Source: Fimicolochytrium jonesii (taxonomy: Eukaryota). Taken from it: a DNA stretch of 64,000 nucleotides. The translations under genes were made by a program, and so were the position numbers. Of the stretch, positions 12,759 to 61,790 are shown piece after piece. The stretch is taken from contig NW_026515686.1 of NCBI RefSeq assembly GCF_025526975.1, positions 434,001-498,000 on the forward strand. Direction: 5' to 3'. Position 1 is the first letter of the stretch. Every line of letters begins with the position of its first letter. The notes under the pieces were generated by a model. The model was not told the DNA's origin, searched no databases, and saw only the letters and a program-made list of their open reading frames with translations.

Positions 12759-12829
12759 TGCCAAAGGGCGGAATCGAACCGCCGTCCTCACGGCCACAAC
12801 GTGATGTGCTGCCACTATACCACTTTGGC
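12759..12829 (-). tRNA. tRNA-His (GTG)
   Basis: Reverse complement folds as a cloverleaf: GCCAAAG/CTTTGGC acceptor stem, TCACG-TTGTGGC-CGTGA anticodon arm, GGTTCGATT T-loop; T-rich Pol III terminator at ~12741-12750. Confidence 0.96.
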
Positions 12830-13284: not shown

Positions 13285-16167
13285 TTAAACGTATCTATCC
13301 TCATTCACCTCCGTGTTCAGCTTCCTTCGCGAACGTGCAATACAACCGAAAGGAGGAGGAGCCATGTATGGCTGAGTGATTCCCAGGGTTGCACGTCGCT
13401 CCCGAGAGTTCAAACGAGCCTTAAGCAAAGAAATCTCATTGGCCTTTCTCACGAGGGTTTGTAAGGTGGCCTGTTGCAGTTCAGATCAATCACATACGGA
13501 AAGACTATTAGGCACGTAGTTGTGAACATGACGAGCAAGCACCTGCTCACCTCTACACGTAGTAAAGAGTACACCCCATTCTCCACGATTGCCAGGTTTG
13601 ACAATGAACGCGGCAGCTTGAATCGCTTGAGTAGCCCGGCACAAAAAACTCCTTCGGTGCGCCATCTCAGCCCGTACACATAGGATGACCAATCTGGGGT
13701 TGTTGATAAGTAACAAGAAAAATATATATATGGAATCAACGAAACGGAATTGGGCAACAGCAGGTCCGACATTCACTTCGTGTGCACATACCATAGCTCT
13801 GAATGCCCATCACAAACAATCCCCCGATCTTCTCCGACAAAACCCCAGAATTTTCAAGACCGAAAGCGAATACGATTTCCATCAGACATTCCAATAGATC
13901 GACACGGTCCAAATGAAACTTAGCGAGTCCAGGCCGGGGTAGCCCGCCTGATCGGAGGCACACCAGCCCCTCGAGCTGGTCGTTCGTGTCGGCCAAAGTG
14001 ACGCGAAGGTCCAACTTTTGCCCAGCCGTGGATCTCTTGCCGATTTTCCCAGTCCTGTTACGGGCCACGATGCTTCCCAGGCTTTGGAGCTCACCCTCCT
14101 CAAGAAGCCACCGACTTTGTGTTGGATCGATCAGGGACTTGACCATGTGAGCAGTAGTGGCGTTGTCAGCCGTGGCTTCGGATGCCGGGAGCTTCAACCT
14201 CATAATGCTCGAAGCGTACTGTTGCACGCTTCGCCTGGACCAATCAAAGTCAGAAACTTGCCAACTATAACGCACCAGGCTTTACAATCAAGACCCGGTG
14301 CCGCACACTCACCGTATCTCGTTCACCCGCGCTGATGGAGATGCGATTTTCTCAATGGTGTCGATAACATTGGATGGATCCGTCTTCGCAACGACGTTGG
14401 TTCAGTGCACAGCCATTACCTTAGGTAATGGCTGTGCACTGAACCAGACGTCTGCGATCTGGTCCATAAGATCTTGAATGGATTCGCGCAAATCATCCTG
14501 GACGTCCTCCAGCCGTACGTCTTCATGGAAGTCTGCAACAATCTCTTCCCATTCTTTCTGATTGAAGGAGCCTGGATTGGATGTAAATTCATGATTCGAA
14601 CACGAAGCGCGTACAAACATTGACCGACGCGAATCAAATAGAAAACGAGTCCTCTCCTTTCTCAGTCCCCTTACCTTGCAAGATCGGGTCCATTTCAGTC
14701 ACGTCCAGGATTCCCCAATACAAGGGGTTCAGTGTTTGGTCTTTGGTCAGGACGGCCTTTCTTGCCTCCCGCAGCGTCTCGGCCACATCTTTACCCGTGG
14801 AAAGGATCCATGTTCCAAAGTTCTTCTCGCCCTTCCGGCTTCGCTGGTTGTGGGGAGGAAAGGCGTCCTTCCAAGTTTCTGGATGGTTGAGGATCAAATG
14901 AAGACGGCCATCCTCCTCCTTATCGTGATCCACATCTTGTTCCGGGTCTTCTTCCTCGTCACAGTCGACATCACATCCGTCACCTTGGACGTTTTTCGGA
15001 TCATTTTCGTTTGGAACATATCCAGAAGCAGCGACTGCTACGTCATCCCTGTCGTCTTCGTCCAAGGCATCCCCCACAATGTCTTTTGCTGCCTTTGAAG
15101 CAAACTTGGTCTTATATCCTGAAACAGCCGTCTTTGTTGCTGCAGCTCGCGCCCGTGTCAACCGCTGCAACGTCGCGAATTGATCACTCGATAAATATGC
15201 TTGGAGGTTTTGAACGGTGGTGCTTGTCTTCTACAATGAAATCGAATACGAATGAACGCAATGTGGTCAGTAACGGCCGGTAACAAGCTATGAGCCATTT
15301 GAACAGGGTAATTGAAGTAATTGAAGAAACTCGGACAATGTCCCCTCGAGGCACCAACGACACCGAACACTACATCCGAAGACGTATTAACTACCGCTTT
15401 GGCCATAACATCTGCAGCTGCGGACATTCTTCCACCAAAGTGCAGCTGTGCACCCTCCCCTGGCAAGGATCAAACGGGCCGGAAGGCGTGGCAGGATCCT
15501 CAATGCTTTTACACATTTCGCGGCCTAAGAAAGGGTAGCGCCAGGGTGCGGGTCCAGAAGTTCATGCTCCTTCGAATGAAGTTCTGGATTACCACGGATG
15601 CACAGCGGAAATGCTCAGTGACCATGGGATACCCAGCGGAAATATCCGCTGCCATGACAGCTGGTGATCCTCTCACCCCGAGAGGTTAAAGCGGGCGTAA
15701 GCGTAGCAAGAACCTCCACGTTTTTACACGTTCGCGGCCAAGAAGGGTGGCGCGGGGTCTAGTAACAGACATCTCCTCTTTCCATCCCAACCCCATACTT
15801 ACGTTCTCCAGGTTCTTCAGAAGCTTGGTCACTTTCTGCTTGGATGCCTTCCCCGTAATCCCATCCTCGAGGAGGGTCAGTTCTTTGATCGCGAGGCGCG
15901 TAATATCCTCCAGCGTCCATTCAGTTTGTGGTCGGGCTTCGATTATGTAGTCCGCAAAGTCGATCACTGACCACTCAGTGGTGGACGTCCAGTACCCTAT
16001 CAGGTTCCGTTAGCACTGGTATCATGCCCTGCGCAGCGAAATTTCAGCAACATACCAGAGAATTGGAGTCTCTTAAGCGAATAGTCTGCTATGCACACTA
16101 TCTGTCTCGGCCTCTTCAACTTTGCGTCCGCGTCTGTGAAACTTTTACGCTTGAGCTTAGGGCCCAT
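13285..16167 (-). CDS. Multi-exon protein with a C-terminal PD-(D/E)xK restriction-endonuclease-like domain (Crinkler-type REase family of early-diverging fungi)
   Basis: ATG 16167; spliced pieces YWTSTTEWSVIDFADY, an acidic linker, WILSTGKDVAETL..LYWGILD, GELQSLGSIVARN..GQKLDLR..EGLVCLRSGG..KFHLDRVDL, VMGIQ, YVYGLRW..FKLPRS; stop at 13285. Confidence 0.65.
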
Positions 16168-16560: not shown

Positions 16561-18034
16561 ATGGGTAATTCAAAATTGACGTATGTACGGTCGTGGTTAG
16601 GTCTCTTCGTTCTATATCTGAAGCTCTTTGGCAGGAATTATCGTTCAAATGCTGTGCATGACCGGTTGCCGGAAAAGGGCAGCATTGGAATGCGCCAACT
16701 GTTTTGGAACGAGCTCGGCTATGCTCTCAAAGATTCGGAGGCAAACGCTGCCATCTGTCGATTCCTCAAAAGACGTCACAAATACTACCACGGGACGAGC
16801 ACCTTGTTACCGGACGCGGTCAATGAAGCACGGATGTCAGTTGTCGATTACATACAACGGCATCCAGAATTATCAAACTACGAGAAGGACCTATCCCCAT
16901 CTTCAGCTTCACTGGATGATCGTATCCTGCAGACAAAGGAAGAGATTGAAAAGGAAGAATCTTATTTGAGCGCTGAAGACGACGATGACGATTTTGATGT
17001 TAAGCGACGGTCAGTATTTCTTTTCCCATCGGATACATGCCTTTATCTTAAAAACAGTCTTCTGAAGGATGCATCACACGAAGCAAGGACCGTTCCCCGA
17101 GCTAGAGCCGCGCGGCAAGCTAGGGCAGCTCACCGATCGCCTGGCAGATGCCAGCATTGACGAAGACACGAAACAAGCCAAAGCAGATGCACATCAGAAA
17201 GGTACAATCAAAGTATTATGCTGATATCAAGCAAAAACCCTTTGCTAACATCATGACAGAATTTCCCCCTTATGTTCCAGAATCCATTGTTGGCACTCTC
17301 CAACGGCTGAAGGAAGGCCGCTCGGACTATGTGGAGAACTTGATCGCCTTTTACAAGCTTAGGTCGGAAGGTGCATTTGCCGGGCATGAGGACGAATGGG
17401 TTCTGATCCACGATCAGTCCATTGTCCGTTTTTTTCCAAGCGAAGATGATATCATCGAAGTGGTGGACGAACATCCTGGTGGTGCTTTTCAGCCGGTGAA
17501 TGACAAAAATCTGCGAGGAGAGAAGAAGAGGGCTGTAGCATGTATTCCAGGTGCCCAGGCGGAGTTCAAGGTATCACCTGTACTTTGTTGTATTCTTGAG
17601 TAATATCTACAACTCGCCTTCTGCAGGTTCCTTTGGAAGTACGAATTGACAATCTGAAGGGACACGCTACAAATATTAGCATTGAGGATGTCTGTTTTGA
17701 TACAGGGTGTCCGCGCACGACTTTGCAACACCATCATTTGATTCAACTTGGCAATCCGGCTACTACAATTGTGTCCTTCCGGGGTCTGGGAACAGGTTCG
17801 GGCACCTGTTTCCGTGCTACAGTGTCTGGCATCAATCCTGCTCAAACAAAATGGAGTCCGAAGATGAGGATCGATTTCTGGAGTGAGGAGTCTAACGACG
17901 AGTGTCTGCTCGGTTTCGACATTTTGCGGCATTTTGCTATCGCATCTTTACCGACCGCCGGAACGCCAAGTCTACTTATCGCCTCCAACGAAGTGGCGTT
18001 GAAAACCAAACTAGGCGGCGTTCACGCGAATTGA
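16561..18034 (+). CDS. Multi-exon protein ending in a retropepsin-like (clan AA) aspartic protease domain
   Basis: Last exon has CFDTGCPRT and CLLGFDILRHF; the preceding exon has GHEDEWVLIHDQSIVRFF; introns near 16581, 17010, 17202, 17571 (the second junction is ambiguous). Confidence 0.7.
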
Positions 18035-18468
18035 GGCATACCGACCAATTGATGTTTGCATAAATGGGCAGATTCCGTTTTGGTTGACGGCTCGCTGTTG
18101 ATCCGCCTCGGAAATACCCCTGCCGGACAGCAAAGTTGACTACGAGGCGGCAACGTGTCCGATGAGGTTAGGGCATGGTGGGAAAACGCCGGGGTTCTTC
18201 CATGAATGTATGCATGAATGTAAAGTAATAAAGGAAATAAATGGCGTTGAGAGCCAGGTAATCAAGTATACAGCCACTCACAGGGTCTCTAGGGTATAAA
18301 ATGGAGCGCCCCAGGAGGCCTTGTATGGCAATTCGGGTTACATCGCCGTCTACCTGTGGCAACAGAGAGACATCAACGTCACTCCATGCCCAAGACCCAT
18401 TCGTCTCAAACTATCGATAATCAGAACATAAGCTTTTCAGATCAAGGTACACTGTAAAAGCCTACGAC

Positions 18469-18917
18469 ATGGACGACGCGCTGTTGAAGGACGCATTGGT
18501 GCGTTTTTCCAGCAAGCCTGCTCATCTCTCGCAGCTATTGAGCGTGGTGCGCAGGCAGCGGAGCGGGGGAACCCACGTCTCCTTGCGGTTGATTGACTAT
18601 TTTGTCGTCACGTACGCCAAGGAGAAGCCCGTGGTGTACACCGTGGGCGACCAACCCGTAGATATCTATCTACAAGAGCTACCAAGCCAACCAAGAGCGG
18701 TTCAAAAAGCGCTGCTTTGACCCTTTCGCACGCGGTTCCGTCACGGAATGGACATTTGCTGGGGAGCGCATCAAACACGAGGCAACTGTGTTTCATGCGG
18801 TGGGCCATTGAGAACAAAGTGCTGGACTACGTCAGAGACCACATGCAAACCATCTCTGAAGCGACGGTGAAGGACACCACCATGAGGAAGTCCCTGCCGC
18901 AACGCAAAAGGGGCTAG
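18469..18917 (+). pseudogene. Conserved NCLDV hypothetical protein (SLRLIDxFVxxYAK..FDPFxR..QLxFxRWAIEN family), 2 frameshifts
   Basis: VSLRLIDYFVVTYAK; removing the TATC duplication at 18663-18670 gives DIYKSYQANQERFKKRCFDPFARG; after a second shift near 18770, RQLCFMRWAIENKVLDYVRDH. Confidence 0.85.
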
Positions 18918-18955
18918 GAAGCTCGCCCGACCGCAGTATCTGGCGACTTCAGAAA

Positions 18956-19759
18956 ATGGACGACATGGTACGCAAGCTATTTGAGGAGCTGCTGGAAGAC
19001 GTCAAGAGGTTTGACGACAAGGCGGTGGGTGTCCGCTTGCAAGAGGCGTACGACGCCCTCCCGTCGATGCAAGCCGTCATCGAAGGCCTCCGCGACCCGA
19101 CGTCCGACCTTTCCAACGCCATACCCCAAGGACCCTGGGTGTTGGCGTCCGACGCACGGTTCCCTCGCCCGTGTCAGTCCTGGGCCTCCACGGGCGTGTC
19201 CACGGAAACGTCGCTGGATGCCTGGTGGACGAACGTGGCGGACGCTGCGGCACCCACGCGATGGCGATCGTGCGGCGGAAGTCCCATTCCGATCGCCGCG
19301 TCCCATGGATGGCCAAAACTGCCTCCCGCTGGCCAGTCTGCGCCATCGCCACCCGGGCCTTCCACCAGGCCTGATGGGTCCGCCGGGGCCACTAGTCAGG
19401 GAGAAGCTGGGTGTTTGGGAACGACGGGAACAACGACTTGGAGACCGCATCGGGCTGGAAGGAATGCCCGGAGCCCCTCGCGGCAGCGTTCCAACACCTC
19501 GGGATAGACGTCCCGCCCGAATTTGAGCATGTCGCCGGCGTGGCCACTTGGACCGCGTCCGCCCGCTGAGATCGTCCACGCCGTGCCCAACCCCGGTCTG
19601 GCCATGAAGACGTTGGAAGGCATGTCGTTTCAGGAACTCGCGAACGCGGCTTCGCTGACGCCGTGTGTGCAATACAGCTCACACGCAACGGTTAAGGAGT
19701 GGCATCCAGCGAACATGGACGACGCCCGATGTCTCTTTTTTCTACGCCCATGGCGGTGA
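18956..19759 (+). pseudogene. Unknown intronless gene within the viral block, multiply frameshifted
   Basis: AAAATG start 38 nt after the previous stop; MDDMVRKLFEELLEDVKRFDD..; the protein-like sequence switches frames and ends ..CLFFLRPWR*. Confidence 0.5.
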
Positions 19760-20119
19760 CTGCGAGGGAGTCTCTCCCCTCAGTGTCAGGAACCGCGTGG
19801 ACGACACTCGCCTGCTAATTTTCACCCGCGCCTCCACGCAAGCCGCGGCGGCTACGGCGGCGCGCTTAGAAGCTCTCTCGGAGCTGAGGGGAAAGACTCT
19901 GGATAGGTCAAAGAACGGCTGGAAAGTGAAAGATCCCAGCGGCGATCTCATGTGGACCGTCTCATCGGTCCGCTTCGGCGTTGGGACTCGGAGCGACGCC
20001 TCCGATGGCCGACGGTCAACGTGTCCTCCGTGTAAGGGGTTTGCGTGAGCGGACCCAAAGTTGGCATCTCGCAGTAGACCTATAGCATCTTGCAGTGAGG
20101 AGGACATAGACGTGTCGCA

Positions 20120-21780
20120 AGTGCCCCCTGGGGATCTATGCGAGGAATTTGTGACAGATGGCGAGACAGCCCGCGAAATAGGACACCACCTTGCCACGCG
20201 CTTTCCGACAGCATCAGACCGGGAGGGGACTGTTATGTTTGGTCACCTTTCACTGCACGGCGCCTTGATGAACGCCAGCGGTCGCATCCATTTAGGGGAA
20301 GAGATCACCGTCCAGACCCTCGAAGGGTTCAAACGCGTGTTCCTGGGCCATTTCCACCGCCACGCAAGTTACGGCCGGTATGGGCGCGTCATGTACGTCG
20401 GCTCCCCCGTCCAGTTGAGTTTCGGTGAGGCGGGCGACTCGGACAAAGGATTCATGGCCTACGACCCTAGCGCCGACGCTTGGACGCTTCACCGAAACCC
20501 GCATGCCGTGCAATACGTGCAGCTCACCGTCGCGGAGGCCAGGCATGCGGTGGACGTCAAGAACGACGGGCTTCGCGGAAAGCTGGTGCAATTGAAGGAC
20601 GATGGCCAAGAGGAGCCCCGGGACATGGACGCCCTTCGCCGGGAACTGCAAAGCACTCTACGAGTGAAAGGGGTTGCCGCTATTCGTCGGACGACCGGGA
20701 ACACCAAAAACGGTAACCCTATTCCTAACCCTGTCACCGGGAACGACCTGATGGACTATGCTCGACAATTCGCCTCGCTTCAAAAGGGATGGACGCCGGT
20801 CGTGTACATGGCGTACTTGACCAAAAAGCGGGATCAAATCAAGGGTTTCGGGCCTGGTGCCAGCGCCGGCGGGCGACCGTCTTTCGTCGCCGGCTTGAAG
20901 GCCATCACCGTGACGAACTTCCTGGGCATAGAGGGACCCGTCATCTTGATTTCCGAAGCAAGGTGTCTCCCGGCATGTGGGTCATCCAAAGGGACAACGG
21001 CGCGGGGAAGACGACTCTGTCCGAAAGCATCCTGTGGTGCTTGAACGGGACGTGTGCGAGGGGCGATTATCTCCACGAGAGGAAAGTCGTGAATCAGGTC
21101 ATCCATGCCCACCCGTCGGTGACGTCCTGCGAGGTCAGCGTCGCTTTCGTCAACGGGTACACCTTTACTAGAACTAGGTCTCTGACCAAGAAGCCGAGGC
21201 TGTGGTTTACGTTCCCCGACGGCGCGCACACCGAAAAGGGGAACATCCAGGTCACCCAGAAGCTGATCGAAGAGCTCCTGGACGTGGACGCCGACACCTT
21301 CCGGAACACCGTGATGCTGACCTCCAACCAGAGCGTCTCATTCACCAGCTCCAACGACGCGAGGAGGAAGTTCATCGACGACCTGTTGGGTTTCGCCGTC
21401 CTCGAAGACTACGCCAAAGTCATGGCGGACGACCTGGCCCAGCTGAAAGCGGAGTTGAAGGTCGTCAAGGGCGCTCTTGCTGAGCTGAGAGGAAATCAGG
21501 TGGCCCAGATTCCGTATCAAGAAAGGAAAATCGCCGAGTTGGAAGGGCACCTGCAGACAGCGAGGTTGGAAGCTGAGAGAGCGACGGAGGAACAGACACG
21601 AGAAATGCGTGAGGGACTCTTGAGAATTGCGGCATTGTGGGACAGCCTGAATAAACATGCCGCGGCCACGTCAGCTGCAACTACTCCGACAGCGAATGCA
21701 AAATGTCACGGAGGACCTAGACGCCGCGCAGGTCATGAAACAAGGGCTCTCCTCTGAGTCCGCCCACTTACGCGCGGAGG
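20120..21780 (+). pseudogene. Mre11/SbcD nuclease - Rad50/SbcC ATPase fusion, truncated at both ends
   Basis: VMFGHLSLHGA, RVFLGHFH and YVGSPVQLSFGE..KGF (SbcD C-half) continue in frame into LKAITVTNFLGI; frameshift ~20940; WVIQRDNGAGKTTLSESILWCL (Walker A), TQKLIEELLDVDADTFRNTVML, RRKFIDDLLG, coiled coil. Confidence 0.88.
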
Positions 21781-21886
21781 ATCTGGAAACAGGACCTTCA
21801 GACCTGGAGTCCTCAAAGGCGTCCGAGAACACAAACACCGGGACGATGTCCGCCGGACAGCCTTTCGCCGCCACCCTGGTCCTCGC

Positions 21887-23075
21887 TTAGAGAGCGATTT
21901 TGTAGGCCATCCCTTGTGCCCCCGCTGTGCCCGCCACACCCGCGCCGTAAGCAGCTCCTCCAGCGCCTCCAAGCGCTTGCATCGCGACTGTGGATTGATA
22001 TTCGTACTGATACAGAAGGATGGCGAGACCCCCACCCCCACCTCCGCCGCCGCCAATTGCGGGCACCGCCGTGCCCGACGTCCTCACAAACGTCGCGCTC
22101 GCGCCGTTGCCCCCGTTCGCCTGAATGGTTCCGGACCCGGTCACAGCTTGCGCTGCAACGATGCATACCCCCGCCCCGCTTCCGCCGCCACCAGACGTAG
22201 ACGTGCCGGCCGCCCCGTTGGTGGTCAAGCCGCCTCCACCGCCTCCGGTTCCCCTTGTGATGTACACCAACATGCTGGTAAGCAAAATGCGCCCATTGAA
22301 ACACGAAGGCATCGTTGCCATGATGGCGGGTCCACCTTCAACAGCGCTGATGACGTTGGCTGTCCCACCGGCACCTCCCGTCGTGGTGGTGCCTCCCCGG
22401 CCGCCAGCCCCACCTTGTCCGCCCGCCGTATAGTAAGCGGTGGCTGCCACAGCCGCCGTCCCGTTTCCGTTGGTATTCGTGCGTCCCGCACCCCCTGCAT
22501 ATCCTGAACCCAGGACCGTCGTCAACGCCGCGACGTTCTGGTTACCAGCCGTGGCTCCCGAAGCGCTCACACCGTTGAACGCAATCGCCCCGTTGAGGTC
22601 AATGTCCCCACACGATCACCCGCCACCCCGCTGTATTTAAGACCACGCCCGCCGGCACCGTCAGGTTGTTGTACACCATGTTTCTCACCAACGTGGCGTT
22701 GGCGGCGAGAGACACGTCTCCATCTGTCATGGCCGCACTGGGGAAGACCCCCGATGCGGAGGCGGACAGGGACGCATACGACACCACGTCCCACTTCCCG
22801 TTGTCCCGCGATATGACATGCAGACTCGCATAGGGGGTTTCCAGGACAAATCCCGGCAGCCCGCTGATGGTTTCCGTGCCGACGGATCAATCACCACTGG
22901 ATACTCGTCCTTGGTCACTTTGAACACTTTGTACATCTTTCCAGAAATGCCCGTAGCGCTGGGGAGGCTCACGGTGACCTGCGCCGCAGATGTGTCACAC
23001 GCTACAAAATAGTCCGTCGGGACCCTTGTAGCGCCACCGGCGACCGTGCTGAACCTTCGAGAAACAGGAGCGACT
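21887..23075 (-). pseudogene. Glycine-rich virion fibre/spike-like protein, frameshifted (~22875, ~22600), 5'-truncated
   Basis: DYFVACDTSAAQVTVSLPSATG..KMYKVFK..VVIDP.GTETISG..VLETPYASL..SRDNGKW, then YNNLTVPAGVVLNTAGWRVIV and Gly-rich GGGGGGSG..IQANGGNG..GGGGGGGG. Confidence 0.7.
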
Positions 23076-25110
23076 ATTCGTCACGTTCCGTTGGTCTTGG
23101 GTTCCGGACGCGACAGGATCTCGTCCGCGGAGGGTGAGTTGGACGTCTACAGTTGTCGATCCACGACCCCGTCGCGGACAAAGACGGGCCCAGCGGCCCG
23201 ATAGCAGATTGGCTACGCCACCTCCGCGGCGTGGCGCCCAGATCGAGGGATTCCGAACGGCGACCGTGCGGGCGTCGGCTGGACGCGACGGCAGGACGGG
23301 ATGCCATCTGCCGAGACCCTGCCGAAGGTCGCTTTGAAGGCCTCGGCAGACTCCTTTGAAATCCGCACGGGCTCTGCATCCGCTTTGGCGTCCATCGTCC
23401 CGGTGATGACATTGCGCCCCACGGGAGATTTCACCTTCAGCGGCAACGTATCTGCGAATATCTTGCAAGTGGGTACGAAGCTAATCACGGGAGACGGCGT
23501 GACGGAAACCGAAGGCCCGCTCGTCCAAAAGCTCAGCGGAAACTCGGGCAGCTCCACCCAGTGGTACGGTGCGGACACGGATTACCTTCAGGTGGGCTAC
23601 GCCGGCAATGGGAGGTACATCGTCGCGACGGGCGACGCGACGGCTGGGAGGGTTCCAGGAACGCTCAGCCTGCAAGCTGGCGAAGGTAACGCGGACCAGG
23701 TGGTATTGGATGCAGACGGTTCTGTCCATGTCAACGGCGGCGCACTTCACGCGGCAAATGACCTTAACGTCGCCGGAAGCGCCGCGGTGGGAGACGAAGT
23801 GGTGGCAGCCGCGATCACCGCGCATACCGTTTCCGCCTCAACGTCGATGAACATTGGGTCGCTGGTGCTTTCAGACGCGGGATCCACCGGCTCTTTGAAC
23901 TTGGGAACTGCCCAAGGAACCGTCGCGTCGCTCGTCGCCAGGCAGTTGCGTCTCCTCGCCAGTCCCGGCTCGCTCACGGTTGCCTACGATGCTGCACATT
24001 CCACGTTCCGATGGACGCCAGCGGAGCTGGTCAAGGGATGACCTTGGCCGCCCATGCGACAAGCAACCTCTCCCTGACACCGGACGGGGACATCGCCCTG
24101 ACGTGCGGAACGACGCGGCTGAACGGCGACCTAGCAATCATAGGGGCGGTCTCCACCAGCGCAATGACCGTCGGCGGGCCCCTCACTGCTACGATGTTGG
24201 CGTTGGCGTCCGGGGGTGTGTCTCTCGTCCAAACGGGCGGTGCTTTACAGGTCCTCGCACCTTCAAGCAAAATCACACTGTCAGCGGATGGGGGCGCGAC
24301 GAACTTGTCCGTTGGGGTGAATTCAGACGGCGTGTGGGGTCTCTTTGGGAACGCGCCGCTCACAGCCAAGGGGGGTTGGGTGTGGATGACCATGTTTACT
24401 TCCGCGCCGGCGCTGGTGGACCTTGCGTTTCGTATTCCGGTCTGAGCGTGCAAGGTGGACCCCTGACGGCGACTGGAGGTGCGTCCTTTGAAGGCAACGT
24501 CCGGTTTTCTGGCAAGGTGACCGGGACATTGGAGATCGCCGGAGGGTCTCTTCGCCTCACGACGGATAGCGGGGACACGCTGTGCCAATGCCAGGCGACG
24601 CAGGCGACTTCCAATGTGCCCTTCGGAGTGGGCACCGCCGTGAGCGACGAGAAAGCCTTCGCGGTGGGCAACGCGCTGGTGGTAAACACCAGGGACGGGG
24701 TGATTGACCTCATGGGGAGCACCTTAATCAACGGCGCAGATCCGGCCACCCCTGGTGCCCTCTGCACCAAGAGGTACGTGGATGCTTTGCTTCGCGGTTT
24801 CGTGGTCAAGCCCGCCGTGCGGGCGGCATCCACTGTGAACCTTGATCTGACGTCTCCTGTAGGTAACTTGGCGGACGCGGCTGTGCTGCTTGCATCGGGT
24901 GACAGGGTTCTCCTCTGGCACCAGACGAACGCTGTGGAGAACGGAATCTACGTGGTGACGCCCCAAGGTTATGCCGCCCGCGCCGGAGACCTTGCCATCG
25001 GCACTTTCGCCGCCCAAGCTTTGGTGTATGTCATGGAAGGTACGTACGTGGGCAGATCGCTAATCTGTATCTCCCCCTCCACGGCGTGCGTGGTCAACAC
25101 CCACCCGCTG
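23060..25110 (+). pseudogene. Large beta-rich virion fibre/decoration-like protein in several frames, truncated
   Basis: Pieces 23301-24041, 24011-24445 and ~24420-25110; the last has TKRYVDALLRGFVVKPAVRAASTVNL..GDRVLLWHQTNAVENGIYVV..RAGD..VYVMEGT, typical of phage/giant-virus fibre proteins. Confidence 0.72.
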
Positions 25111-25564: not shown

Positions 25565-27141
25565 TCAGAACAGGTTCTGCGTAAGCTTAAAGATGCTAGT
25601 GGTGTCGGCAGCAAGGACCGTCTTGTCAGCCAACGTGACGACCGAGGTGCTGCCAGTAGCGCCAACGTGATAGTCCGTCAGCTTGGCGCCGCTCTTGATG
25701 TCGTAGATGCTGACGGCGCCTGCAGTGTAGTACGCCGTCTGAGTATAATCAAAAACGTACAGACGTGTCGCAGCGACGCTGATGCCCTGCGGCTGGTTTT
25801 GCATAGCGATGGTCTTTTGCGAAACAACCTTGAAGGTGGTCTCGTCGATGGTGTAGAGGATGTTGCCACCGAGACCGTAGAGGGTGCCTCGAAGGGAGGA
25901 GAAGGAGGATGGCGATGATCTGGTGAACTTGAGCGCCGCGCCGAAGGCGCCCGTCTTGGCGTTGAAGCGGAGAAGGTTTCCATCAGGTCCGGCAACGTAC
26001 ACAAAACCGGCCTCCACATACAGATCAATAGGTTGCTGGAAGAACGGGAGTGGGTAGGGGCCCTTGGTCAGATCCAGCTGACCCTTGTTGGCAAAGGCGG
26101 CATCGGGTGTTCCGTTGGCAAGCCACTTGTAGATGGTGGTGCCGTGCACGGCAAAAACATTCCCGGTCTCATCGGCGCGGACTTCGACGGGTCGGTATTG
26201 CGCACCAAAGTCGTAGACAACATCGTACGCGGCAGCACCGAAAGAGGCGTAGCGGGTGATCTTGGTGTTGTCCCATCCAACGTACAGCTTTCCGTCCTTG
26301 CCGACGGCCATGGAAGCGATAGCCTGTGCTTGCGGCGGGGGCATTGGCTTCCAGGTGCCGAGACTGCGCACACGGTTAGCGACGGTGAAAGGCACGGATT
26401 TGGTGACGAAGGGCTTCTTGCTCCCGAGATCGGCCTGGACGGTGAACGTGTGCTGGCCGTTTGCGAGAGTGGATGTGTTCAAGCGGTATTCTGGGCCAGG
26501 ATACACACCGGATGGAGATGTAGGACCTTGGTCGACCCGTCCGCGGGCATTGGTCAAAGGCAAATCGGTGTTGAAGGTGCAGCCGATGGTGACGATTCCC
26601 GTGCTGAAGATGTCACCGCAAGAGGCGGCGGGGGCAATGCGAAGGATCAAAGAGCCATCGGGCTTGTTGCCGATGTTGTAGATGTTGTTGTAGCGCTGAG
26701 GGATTATGTCGAGGTTAGAGGCACACTATCGAAGATGCGTGACGGAACCGAGAGCAATACTCACGATGAAGAATTTGACGGTTTGAGGCAAGGGCTTGTC
26801 AAGAGTGGTGATGGGCGCATGCCACTTCCATGTCTTGGAAGCTTGCACAGGAGTTCCAGCAACGTTTACGCTAGTCTTCCACTGAAAGGTAAATGGCGCT
26901 GTCAGTTGGCATGTGCAATGACGGTTTTGCTCGCAAGAAAAGAGTTGCTTACATCGTCGACGGACCACTCAAGAACCACATCGGCTCTTGGGAACGTTGG
27001 GGTGAGGTCTTGTACCGTGGCGTCCAAGAACACGGCAGCTCCGGTGACGGACAGCACACCAGTCCAGTCACCGAGAGGCGCCTGGGCGACGACGCATGAC
27101 ACGGCGAAGAAAATGGATGCGATGGTAGCGAGGAAGTGCAT
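25565..27141 (-). CDS. Secreted protein with an Ig-like domain and an NHL/beta-propeller-like C-terminus (3 exons)
   Basis: Signal peptide MHFLATIASIFFAVSCVVA; introns GTAAGC ~26952 and GTGAGT ~26764; YRLNTSTLANGQHTFTVQA..VPFTVAN; repeats SMAVGKDGKLYVG, VRADETGNVFA, PIDLYVEAGFVYVA, PQGISVAATRLYVFD. Confidence 0.75.
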
Positions 27142-33795: not shown

Positions 33796-34858
33796 ACGTT
33801 CGCGCAGTTGCGCCGCGACAACTCCGCCGACGCTTTTTCCACCGCTCCTCTTTTCAACGTTGCTTTTGGGAACGGCGAAACCACACACACCCAACTGACC
33901 TGAGCCTTTGTGGGACATCTAAACCAGGTATGAGGAGCAACGCTAGCTGGTCTGTTTAGGGCAGTAAGTATTTGGATTGCTGACCTTTACCAAGCAGAAC
34001 TCCTGAAAAGCGCCAACCCCCAAACAACGTGCTACTAGCAAACCTTCGGCGCCCTGCAAAAGTGGAAGAAGCCCTCCTAGGACATTGACGCAAAGGGTAG
34101 TAGCATTCCCTGACGGGGTCGGTGTGGGACCCAGGTGGGCAAGGATAGGCAAGACCTGTGATGTCGATGTGTTTGTCAAGCTTCACCTTGAGCTGACCGT
34201 GTGCATTGCGGGCCCGCTGGGCTAAGGGGATGACCGACTCAGCGAGGACAAGTCCCTCTGGTTCAGCAGTAAATCGAAAGAACTTCATTGTGCGTGACCG
34301 CTTTCCACCTGTTTTCCCAGTGCTGTGATAGGTTGGGGCCCCACCATTGGCCATGGTGTAGATCTGCACCTCCTGCAAAATGGTAATAAGCTTGTCGGCC
34401 GCTGCCTGTATGTTTGGCTCTTGGTTGTTGCGGAACATAAACAATGTGGTACCGGCATTTGACGTGCGAGCCTTCCCCTTTCGCAGATTCAGCACCCCTG
34501 CTTCTTTTGCTTCCAAGGGTTGCAGGGCTCATTTCATGTCTGATTCCATATATCGCAAAGCACATGGGTTTCCCTGTCCTTTGCCGCTGCACGGAGCAAC
34601 TGGTTCGGGGTCTGTGGCATCTCTCTAAAACTCATTCCCAAAGTCAATATGGGCTTCCCGGTTCTGAACTTTGGAGGACACCTTCATCATACCCTTTGTG
34701 TCAATGTGCAACAGACCAGCTAGTGTCCCATACCTGTTTTAGTTATCCCGCAAAGTCTCAGGTCAGTTGGGTGTGTGTGGTTTCGCCATTCCCAAAAGGA
34801 ATGCTGAAAAAAGGAGCTGTGGAAAAAGCATGGGCGGAGTTGTGTACTGCCCGAATGT
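33796..34858. mobile_element. Non-autonomous TIR-bounded element with ~150-160 bp imperfect inverted repeats and an internal ORF fragment
   Basis: 33796-33955 is the imperfect reverse complement of 34711-34858 (shared core GGCGAAACCACACACACCCAACTGACCTGAG); internal minus-strand ORF 33956-34516. Confidence 0.75.
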
Positions 34859-58703: not shown

Positions 58704-58789
58704 GCTTTCGTGGCGCAATTGGTTAGCGCGTTCGACTGTTACACAAGATAGCAATCGAGAGGTTGGCAGTTCAAGCCTGCCCGAGAGCG
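58704..58789 (+). tRNA. tRNA-Asn (GTT) with a 12-nt intron at 58742-58753
   Basis: GCTTTCG/CGAGAGC acceptor stem, GCGC D-stem, TTCGA-CTGTTA^A-TCGAG anticodon arm, GGCAG-TTCAAGC-CTGCC T-arm; oligo-T terminator at ~58796. Confidence 0.95.
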
Positions 58790-59749: not shown

Positions 59750-61790
59750 CGTCTATAGATTCGAGGTGTCCTTCAGCCCCCCCCCCCACCCAACCTTTGT
59801 CGCAACACCATCCACCATCTCCCACACCCACCCACACACCCCACCGTCCCCACAATGGTGAAGCGAAACTATACCAAGCCTGCTCGCGCCGCTGGAGCAT
59901 TGTACTCAGCGGCCGACGACACCCCCGCCACCCAGCGGCTGAAGCGAGAGATCCGCTATGCGGTAGGTGAACTCATAGAATGAGATTCGTTCTAATCTAA
60001 TAAGATAATCATCATGATCTACGTTCTAGGTCCTCGCCCAGGCCTCAGAGGAGAGGCACAACCGGGCCCTCCGCGAGCAAATCGCGGCGATGCGGGAGGA
60101 GCTGCGCGTGCTCAGAGCCGCCGCCAGACCCTCCGCCTCCTCCCACACCCACCACACACCCCACCGTCCCCACAACCACCATGCCGAAGCGCAAGAACAC
60201 GCAAAAACTGCACAAGGACGCCGGCTCAACGTATTCGGCCGCCGAGGACTCGCCCGAAGTCCAAAAACTAAAACGAGAGCACCGCTATGCGGTGATGGCC
60301 CACCTCGCGAGCGAGAGGGAGGTCATTGCTCTCTGCTCGCAGGTGGGGGCCTTGCGGGAACGAGTCCGCGCATTGGAAGCCGCCGCCGCCGCTCGTCTCT
60401 CGGCCTCCTCCTCCTCCGCCTCCTCCGCCCCCGTCTTTCAATCCCGCGCAGCAGAAGACCAACATGACAACCACCGCTCAGCGAATGGCAAAGCGCGAGC
60501 GCATGTACAAAAAGATGCGCAGAACCAGCTTCGGCCGGCACGCGGTCACGCTTCTCCAACGGGACCTGGAAAAGCAACGCCGAAGATCGCAGGAAGCTTC
60601 GGAGCGCCACAAGGCACGCGTCAGGGCAGCCAGCGCAACCACCACCACCACCACCACCACCACCACCGATACCACTCCCCCCCCCCCCCCCCCCCCACAC
60701 CACCACCCCCCCCCCACCCCCCCCCCACACCACCACCCCGGGCAGCAGCAGTTCGCCGGGCCCACCGCAACAGCCGCGGCCGTTTTGGAAGAACGGGCGG
60801 GGTGTTGGCGTTCGGGTAAGTTGAATCACTGTTCACATCCTCTTCGAATCACAAGGATTTCTACTAACTGCATCTGTTTCCTCTCATTTCCCATAATCAG
60901 GGGGTGGGGTTGCCTGTGTTATGCGGTGATGGCCCACCTCGCGAGGGAGAGAACGAAGCCCTGCGAGCCCAAATCGCGGCCCTGACGGCGTCTATGAATT
61001 CGAGGTGTCCTGCCGCCCCCCACCACCCAAGACCACCTGGAGCACCGGCTCCAACTACTCGGATGCCGGGCTGTCGAAAGACGCCCAGGTCGCCAATCGC
61101 AACGACCGGGCCGCGAAGAGGGACCTGTCCAAGCGGCAGCTCCAGCGTGAGAGGGCCAGGAAGGCCGCCGAGCGGTCCACCAAAAGGGTGGCATGGGCGC
61201 CCGTGACCGCAGTCTTTGCTCCCCCTCCTCCGTCCACCCCACACCCCACCACCGCCATCCCCCAACTCCCCCTCACCACCGACACAACCCCCCCGCAACA
61301 GCAGCGGTGGCAAATACAGTACGCCGCCGCCGCCGCACCAGCCGCGGCGGTGCTGGATGCCCGGGTGGCATTTTTCGCGGGTGTTGGCTTGCCGGTAAGT
61401 TCAGATCAACCGTTCAGATCCTCTTCGAATCACATGGATTTTTTCTAACTGCATCTGTTTCCTCTCATCTCCCATAATCAGGTTCCGGGCCCTAACCAGC
61501 TGCCTGTTGAGGGGCCAATGACCGCCGCCGAGGCAATGACCGGTGTGCCTGCGGGCCCGTGTCCCGGTGGAGAAGGCCCGAAGGCCGCCAAAAGGGACCT
61601 CGAGCGCAGGAACCGCGAGCTGGAAGAGGAGCTAGCTACCGTCACGAGGGAACTCCGCGCCCTCCAAGCCGCGGCCGGTCGTCAAGAGGGACGGCCGGGT
61701 CGTCAAGAGGGACCTGAGCAAGCGCCACGTCTTGCGCGCTTATCAACCCCGTCACGCCCTCCATCTCCTCGGATGATGAAGCGAAAGTTG
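59750..61790 (+). repeat. Degenerate tandem array of basic/coiled-coil (bZIP-like) mini-ORFs with duplicated leaders and introns
   Basis: Leader ACACACCCCACCGTCCCCACAA at ~59835 and ~60153; near-identical introns at 60816-60900 and 61395-61481; paralogous peptides YSAADDTPATQRLKREIRYA and YSAAEDSPEVQKLKREHRYA. Confidence 0.7.

Follow-up and report, generated by a model that had tools for sequence, protein, structure and literature searches.

Does a run of intronless, broken reading frames in a fungal chromosome derive from a giant virus? The question is raised by a 64-kb stretch of contig NW_026515686.1 (positions 434,001 to 498,000; here called the window, in whose coordinates all positions are given), in which an earlier note had seen a decaying, endogenised piece of a fungus-infecting giant virus. 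The intronless block of ~6.6 kb described there is present: it starts at 18469 and stops near 25110, and the two host genes that flank it converge on it with their 3' ends, contain introns and splice into stop-free frames. It holds a DUF7197 gene, open reading frames (ORFs) without homologues, an Mre11-Rad50 fusion and two head-to-head fibre/decoration-like genes. In our analysis the block is probably a decayed, rearranged endogenous fragment of a giant virus (Nucleocytoviricota) in a fungal chromosome, and the source virus likely belonged to a lineage so far unsampled. Of the earlier reading, the origin (through DUF7197), the fungal host and the decay are retained; the argument from Mimivirus is weak, and no marker gene in the window ties the block to Mycodnaviridae. 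The components of the block are as follows.

18469..18917, plus strand: DUF7197 (PF23827) pseudogene of Nucleocytoviricota type, from Pfam matches and an alignment to the protein P0016
18957..20048, plus strand: one to three ORF remnants, function not assigned, from codon-score frames
20172..21655, plus strand: Mre11(SbcD)-Rad50(SbcC) fusion pseudogene, truncated 5' and 3', with a frame change at about 20934
21887..23080, minus strand: fibre/decoration-like gene G, from the codon-score track, with a glycine-rich C-terminal part and no clear start
23205..25110, plus strand: fibre/decoration-like gene H, with no clear start, ending at the right border

The DUF7197 pseudogene

DUF7197 is a giant-virus gene and carries the Nucleocytoviricota case for the block. 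Two pieces at 18421-18914 match PF23827 with E-values of 2e-5 and 1e-5, both below the family cut-off. P0016 aligns through three successive frames (39%, 66% and 45% identity), hence the pseudogene has two frameshifts, the frame changing at about 18670-18677 and 18767-18774. Read through with X at the breaks, it is 46% identical over 149 columns to P0016, its closest intact relative. Identity is 36-38% with P0015 and P0017 and does not exceed about 35% with the best full-length copies in IMG/VR. The block copy has the motifs common to the family (e.g. EsV-1-141), and P0016 has the predicted fold. Compared with other DUF7197 proteins, the two form a divergent, long-branched sub-branch, joined in a quick tree of 105 rows with an SH-like approximate likelihood-ratio test (SH-aLRT) value of 98 and with long-branch warnings, and the block copy is broken. 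Searching exhaustively with the first 83 residues recovered ten proteins, seven of which are DUF7197; the other three, repeat proteins, were dropped. A word-based search with the N-terminal half found no relatives among 45 candidates, and a single-piece scan of IMG/VR with the same half gave two phage loci that we judged spurious. When IMG/VR was scanned with a motif for the close sub-branch, none of the seven matches was DUF7197. These distances, together with the motif scan, bear out the proposal of a divergent and poorly sampled lineage.

The family is confined to Nucleocytoviricota. Its three atlas clusters are 95-100% viral, with Nucleocytoviricota commonest, and it is encoded by 586 of the 598 IMG/VR stretches scanned, 27 of the best 80 carrying a GVMAG label. 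Each of five giant-virus bins had one copy, and none of 14 control genomes had any. Just 20 loci (L316-L335) turned up in 185,579 prokaryote genomes, 19 of them in records titled as metagenome-assembled genomes. In seven of the eight loci examined the neighbours include a nucleocytoplasmic large DNA virus (NCLDV) capsid (two loci), YqaJ, Pox A22 or PolB, and these contigs therefore look like mis-binned giant-virus DNA. The predicted model of P0016 (predicted local distance difference test, pLDDT, 73) was compared with BFVD by Foldseek, giving 16 matches at probability 1.00, of which the 13 named ones are all Nucleocytoviricota and three are unnamed. Against the PDB the model gave no clear match (best Z 3.4), hence no function can be proposed for DUF7197. 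There was no PHROG match, and a literature search on 'DUF7197' found no paper. The protein family recognised earlier by the pattern SLRLID..FDPF..RWAIEN, and held to be characteristic of large DNA viruses, is Pfam DUF7197, and through it a giant-virus origin is supported.

The Mre11-Rad50 fusion and the fibre-like genes

To the right of DUF7197, the codon-score frames at 18957-20048 run +2 (18960-19080), +2 (19560) and +0 (19740-19860), and codon use resembles the rest of the block in places. The ORFs of this segment had no match in Pfam, PHROGs, NCBIfam or phages; the ORF at 18953 likewise had no phage match.

The fusion pseudogene spans residues 129-627 of P0001 (1383 aa) and 132-612 of P0005 (1219 aa), with Mre11 and Rad50 domains in one chain, collinear with the intact fusions across one frameshift, and it matches phrog_100 (E 2e-21) and phrog_77 (E 5e-27). 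Missing are the first ~94-128 residues and the C-terminal ~600-750 residues, the ATPase half. Frameshift-aware alignment did not find the N-terminal nuclease motifs of Mre11 upstream of 20170 (scores of 26-34 against shuffle maxima of 36-38). Because these motifs are undetectable and the ATPase half is absent, we take the truncations to be large deletions. A possible coiled-coil tail extends to 21890 in another frame. At 21887-21890 this plus-strand tail ORF and gene G meet end to end with overlapping stop codons, an arrangement like that of densely packed viral genomes; a 6-bp hairpin at the same position is at chance level.

The closest relatives of the fusion are P0001, P0003, P0004 and P0005 (37-46% identity), encoded on contigs of 12-58 kb. 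A careful tree was built from 45 rows (the window, eight proteins and the 36 best non-duplicates of 62 loci), rooted at the midpoint and with Mimivirus R555 left out. The window copy joins P0005 (100/97), then P0001/P0003/P0004 (100/98), then L083/P0006/P0007 (96/86); the next outward join is to the Nemania proteins P0008/P0009, and phage and IMG/VR copies lie outside. As expected of a resident fungal gene, L083 is interrupted by a GT..AG intron and extended at its N-terminus; the extension may be a targeting peptide. Single-chain SbcD-SbcC genes were observed in fungal genomes (P0006-P0009 and L083-L085:9342-12775, including the two Nemania proteins), and a literature search on fused SbcCD in fungal genomes and its horizontal transfer found no paper. 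Scans with P0001 gave 0 of 5 in IMG/VR and 0 of 59 in metagenomes, and DUF7197 was absent from all 29 virus records, mostly fragments, from which the best SbcCD matches in IMG/VR came.

Single-chain Mre11/Rad50 (SbcD/SbcC) fusions, including Mimivirus R555, have been described as patchily distributed, and their spread by viruses was proposed (Yoshida et al. 2011, PMC3175470). The block copy resembles the R555 type in joining an Mre11-like nuclease to a Rad50-like ATPase in one chain. It differs in its clade, whose fusions are 1,100-1,380 aa long and among which are genes of ascomycetes, whereas PMC3175470 gives no example from fungi ('fungi' and 'fungal' occur 0 times). The nearest named or contextualised relatives being fungal (Nemania P0008/P0009 and the intron-bearing L083), the argument from the occurrence of such fusions in Mimivirus is weak. 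The fusion groups with fungal genes and is therefore, on its own, no argument for a viral origin; either the virus brought it in from a gene pool common to fungi, or its arrival was separate.

Homology of gene G is weak: 18 of 29 residues are identical to an ORF of a 252-kb viral contig (L343) that has neither an NCLDV capsid nor DUF7197, and phrog_13336 is matched at E 0.049. Beyond these matches, its label as a fibre is putative. The codon-score track places frame changes at about 22875 and 22610 in gene G and at about 24005 and 24375 in gene H. The C-terminal domain of gene H matches phrog_2647, head decoration, at E 4.5e-17 and was found in 26 phage records, the matches listed being 32-45% identical. 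Neither gene G nor the upstream part of gene H had a phage match, a scan of IMG/VR with fibre H gave 0 of 20, and a single-sequence fold model of gene H reached a pLDDT of 34. The head-to-head arrangement of the two genes and the lack of a clear start in either point to an inversion, or to separate pieces having been joined. The fibre domains had been assigned to a phage or giant-virus type; the atlas clusters of the gene H domain do include both groups (Uroviricota 0.95 and Nucleocytoviricota 0.94), but tailed phages share the domain and it does not discriminate.

The PHROG matches to SbcC, SbcD and head decoration, the phage records for the gene H domain and the weak similarity of gene G to a contig lacking NCLDV capsid and DUF7197 would all suit a tailed-phage or bacterial prophage fragment transferred to the fungus. 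We regard such an origin as very improbable. DUF7197 has no counterpart in PHROGs and its fold matches are to giant viruses only, whereas the best 20 phage SbcCD matches are just 20-26% identical to P0005. Among 15 pieces of the block only SbcCD and the decoration domain match PHROGs, and the analysis revealed neither a terminase nor a portal or phage capsid.

The same genes bear on a mosaic origin, in which a small giant-virus scrap (DUF7197, perhaps with the ORFs at 18957-20048) would lie beside a separately arrived, decayed fungal-type fusion and fibre genes derived from phages or bacteria, these having come in separately or with a different large mobile element. In its favour, the position of the fusion is within a group of fungal genes, fibre H matches tailed phages, the left part of the block is less GC-rich, and no fetched locus carries two of the block's genes together. 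Against this, all parts are contiguous, intronless and of similar GC content at third codon positions (GC3), the closest relatives of the fusion lack the N-terminal extension of L083, and the fibre domain occurs in a Nucleocytoviricota cluster as well. Fungal giant viruses are moreover themselves mosaics of viral, bacterial and fungal genes, as described in PMC13533422. Taken together, a mosaic graveyard appears unlikely.

For a giant-virus fragment, a further proposal is possible, if doubtful: an undescribed fungus-infecting giant-virus lineage, including P0016 and P0001/P0003/P0004/P0005, whose fusion was recently co-ancestral with the single-chain SbcCD of ascomycetes. If this were true, a DNA-repair gene would have been exchanged between giant viruses and the ancestors of Dikarya, and marker-less fossils would form a large hidden record of giant-virus infections.

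Decay, borders and assembly

The block is intronless, gene-dense and marked by disabling mutations. We counted seven frameshifts in 1,620 codons (1.44 per kb), three by homology and four by codon score only, the codon-score model for genes G and H having been trained on those same segments. G runs contain or adjoin three of the breaks; a GT repeat marks the site of one more, and a tandem 4-nt repeat that of another. Host exons totalling 6.3 kb contain no frameshift, against about nine expected at the block rate, a comparison that is partly circular in that long exons were chosen. The four recognisable genes are all frameshifted or truncated, which agrees with the decay noted previously: DUF7197, the fusion, G and H each have frameshifts, and the fusion is cut at both ends. 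That every ORF is broken by small indels can be upheld for these four genes, but the ORFs at 18957-20048, lacking homologues, cannot be judged. Nor is the damage limited to small indels, the fusion having lost both ends and the fibre genes standing head to head. Since the fusion is cut at both ends, its state is not base-call error, and genuine decay is the reading that these truncations favour.

The right border is a sharp step in GC at about 25120 (0.63 to 0.48). The left border, which falls somewhere within 18034-18469, has no compositional mark, and the GC change-point at 19020 falls inside the block. Overall, GC is 61.2% within 18469-25110 and 55.0% outside. Neither flanking gene is broken by the block, and the block and both flanks are contiguous on one assembled sequence. 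No terminal repeats or target-site duplication above chance were found at the block ends. A 26-nt inverted repeat (18437/24825) was rejected as termini, its second arm lying within coding sequence, and an 8-nt direct match (18436/25207) was rejected as about chance level for windows of that size. No integrase was matched among the block pieces in Pfam, PHROGs or NCBIfam; the block thus shows neither the inverted terminal repeats nor the integrase of a provirus. Scans for bacterial promoters and terminators were near shuffle levels (4 versus 1.5, and 5 versus 6.5).

Several observations weigh against a giant-virus origin. DUF7197 is the sole giant-virus-specific gene in the block; no pieces of MCP, PolB, A32, D5 or VLTF3 were found within the 64-kb window, and when 1,569 ORFs of 100 DUF7197 loci, capsid and PolB genes included, were compared with the window, only the DUF7197 region matched; hallmark genes may, however, be missing from a mere fragment. 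In the tree the fusion groups with fungal (ascomycete) genes and not with phage or IMG/VR copies (99/98), and it was absent from all eight giant-virus bins. The gene H domain was present in none of 17 virus records, eight of them giant-virus bins, in a search that had no positive control. GC3 is no different between the block genes (0.68-0.80) and the long exons of the host (0.67-0.77); hence the GC step comes mostly from coding density, and composition is weak evidence for foreign origin. The breaks at G runs and short repeats fit sequencing error as well as replication slippage. The lack of an internal stop in 1,620 codons fits sequencing error too, although the segments were picked as stop-free and, with 0.3-2.5 stops expected, the absence is not significant.

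The last two observations, and host-insert junctions that rest on the assembly, would suit a chimeric join, in which live or co-sequenced giant-virus DNA was joined to a fungal contig and thin coverage produced the frameshifts as errors of the consensus. We consider this rival quite improbable. The host exons are free of the frameshifts expected at the block rate, the loss of both ends of the fusion and the rearranged fibre genes are unlike a live virus, and the block sits exactly between two 3' ends.

If the block is a giant-virus fragment, a large DNA virus would have reached the nucleus of an ancestor of the fungus. This virus likely had DUF7197, an Mre11-Rad50 fusion acting in genome repair or recombination, and fibre or decoration proteins on its particle. 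Its DNA may have been captured by integration of a provirus that deletions and an inversion then reduced, or by end joining of several pieces into a double-strand break. After capture, selection would have been relaxed and slippage-type indels would have accumulated by neutral decay. The block is likely without present function.

Known fungal relics and the host surroundings

NCLDV relics in fungal genomes are, as had been pointed out, already on record (PMC7017919 and PMC13533422). The former study (Gong, Zhang and Han 2020) counts 87 NCLDV-like sequences across 15 fungal genomes, and frameshifts and premature stops occur in some of them. The fundsalpha- and fundsbetaviruses of that study resemble the block as giant-virus genes in fungal chromosomes, some of them frameshifted. 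They were found through PolB, RNA polymerase, D5, MCP and A32, whereas the block has none of these; consequently no place among their lineages can be given to it, and it would escape screens of this type. Mycodnaviridae (Myers et al. 2026, PMC13533422) are likewise giant-virus DNA in fungal nuclear genomes, ranging from single-gene fossils to proviruses and mosaic in content. In that paper the family is delimited by a GVOG7 tree together with IM_02 and was detected via MCP, with full elements of up to 350 kb that have inverted terminal repeats; capsid genes occur only outside Dikarya, and at least five giant-virus PolB clades exist in fungi. The block, in contrast, is 6.6 kb long and has no marker and no repeats. 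With no marker gene in the window it is not assignable to Mycodnaviridae. Decaying giant-virus DNA with pseudogenes is also contained in a 1.5-Mb endogenous viral region of the Rhizophagus irregularis chromosome (bioRxiv 10.1101/2023.04.17.537115); that region is over 200 times larger than the block, and its markers place it near Asfarviridae.

Giant-virus fossils in fungi are a kind known since 2017-2020; what is new is this case, and probably another lineage. The block adds one fungal host and probably one virus lineage to a young record of fungal giant viruses, and it exemplifies a fossil type missed by capsid- or polymerase-based screens on predicted proteins. DUF7197 offers a short, specific probe for such fossils, and the fusion clade, to which genes of ascomycetes also belong, gives a testable starting point for studying gene flow between these viruses and fungi. 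The relic as such is most likely inert.

The genes flanking the insert, both outside it, are the following.

16561..18034, plus strand: left flanking host gene, four exons, 433 aa, stop-free splicing
25565..27141, minus strand: right flanking host gene, three exons and two introns, stop-free splicings

The left gene has three GT..AG introns (17010-17067, 17202-17259 and 17571-17626), and its last exon is weakly aspartyl-protease-like (PF13975, E 0.09, below the cut-off). In the right gene three possible acceptors lead to products of 467-488 aa, the C-terminal part of which is propeller-like (PQQ_2, E 0.006, below the cut-off). Elsewhere the window encodes eukaryotic proteins, namely Cas1p, MUN/C2, LITAF and a COX5A-family subunit. 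Compared with PDB chains called 'subunit 6', the latter scores 88.8-68.6 bits; the value is about 55 for chains called 'subunit 5A'. We take the two sets to be the fungal and mammalian chains, respectively. These scores and the introns of the flanking genes support a fungal host. No marker fixing the fungal phylum was found in 173 ORF pieces of the window scanned against Pfam (22 + 26 + 125, the last set picked by codon score from 745 candidates); an early-diverging host is plausible.

The stretch at 13-18 kb, left of the block, has lower GC (48-52%) and genes without family matches, and at 14398-14446 there is a perfect 24-bp hairpin with a 1-nt loop. Two tRNA genes were noted, tRNA-His at 12759-12829 and tRNA-Asn at 58704-58789. 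At 33818-34843, 115-nt inverted repeats, 89% complementary and 796 nt apart, surround a 190-codon ORF without Pfam match, and the whole looks like a small terminal-inverted-repeat element. Tandem duplicate units of ~580-630 nt, with segments 70-97% identical, low-complexity C-rich tracts and no Pfam match, occupy 59750-61736.

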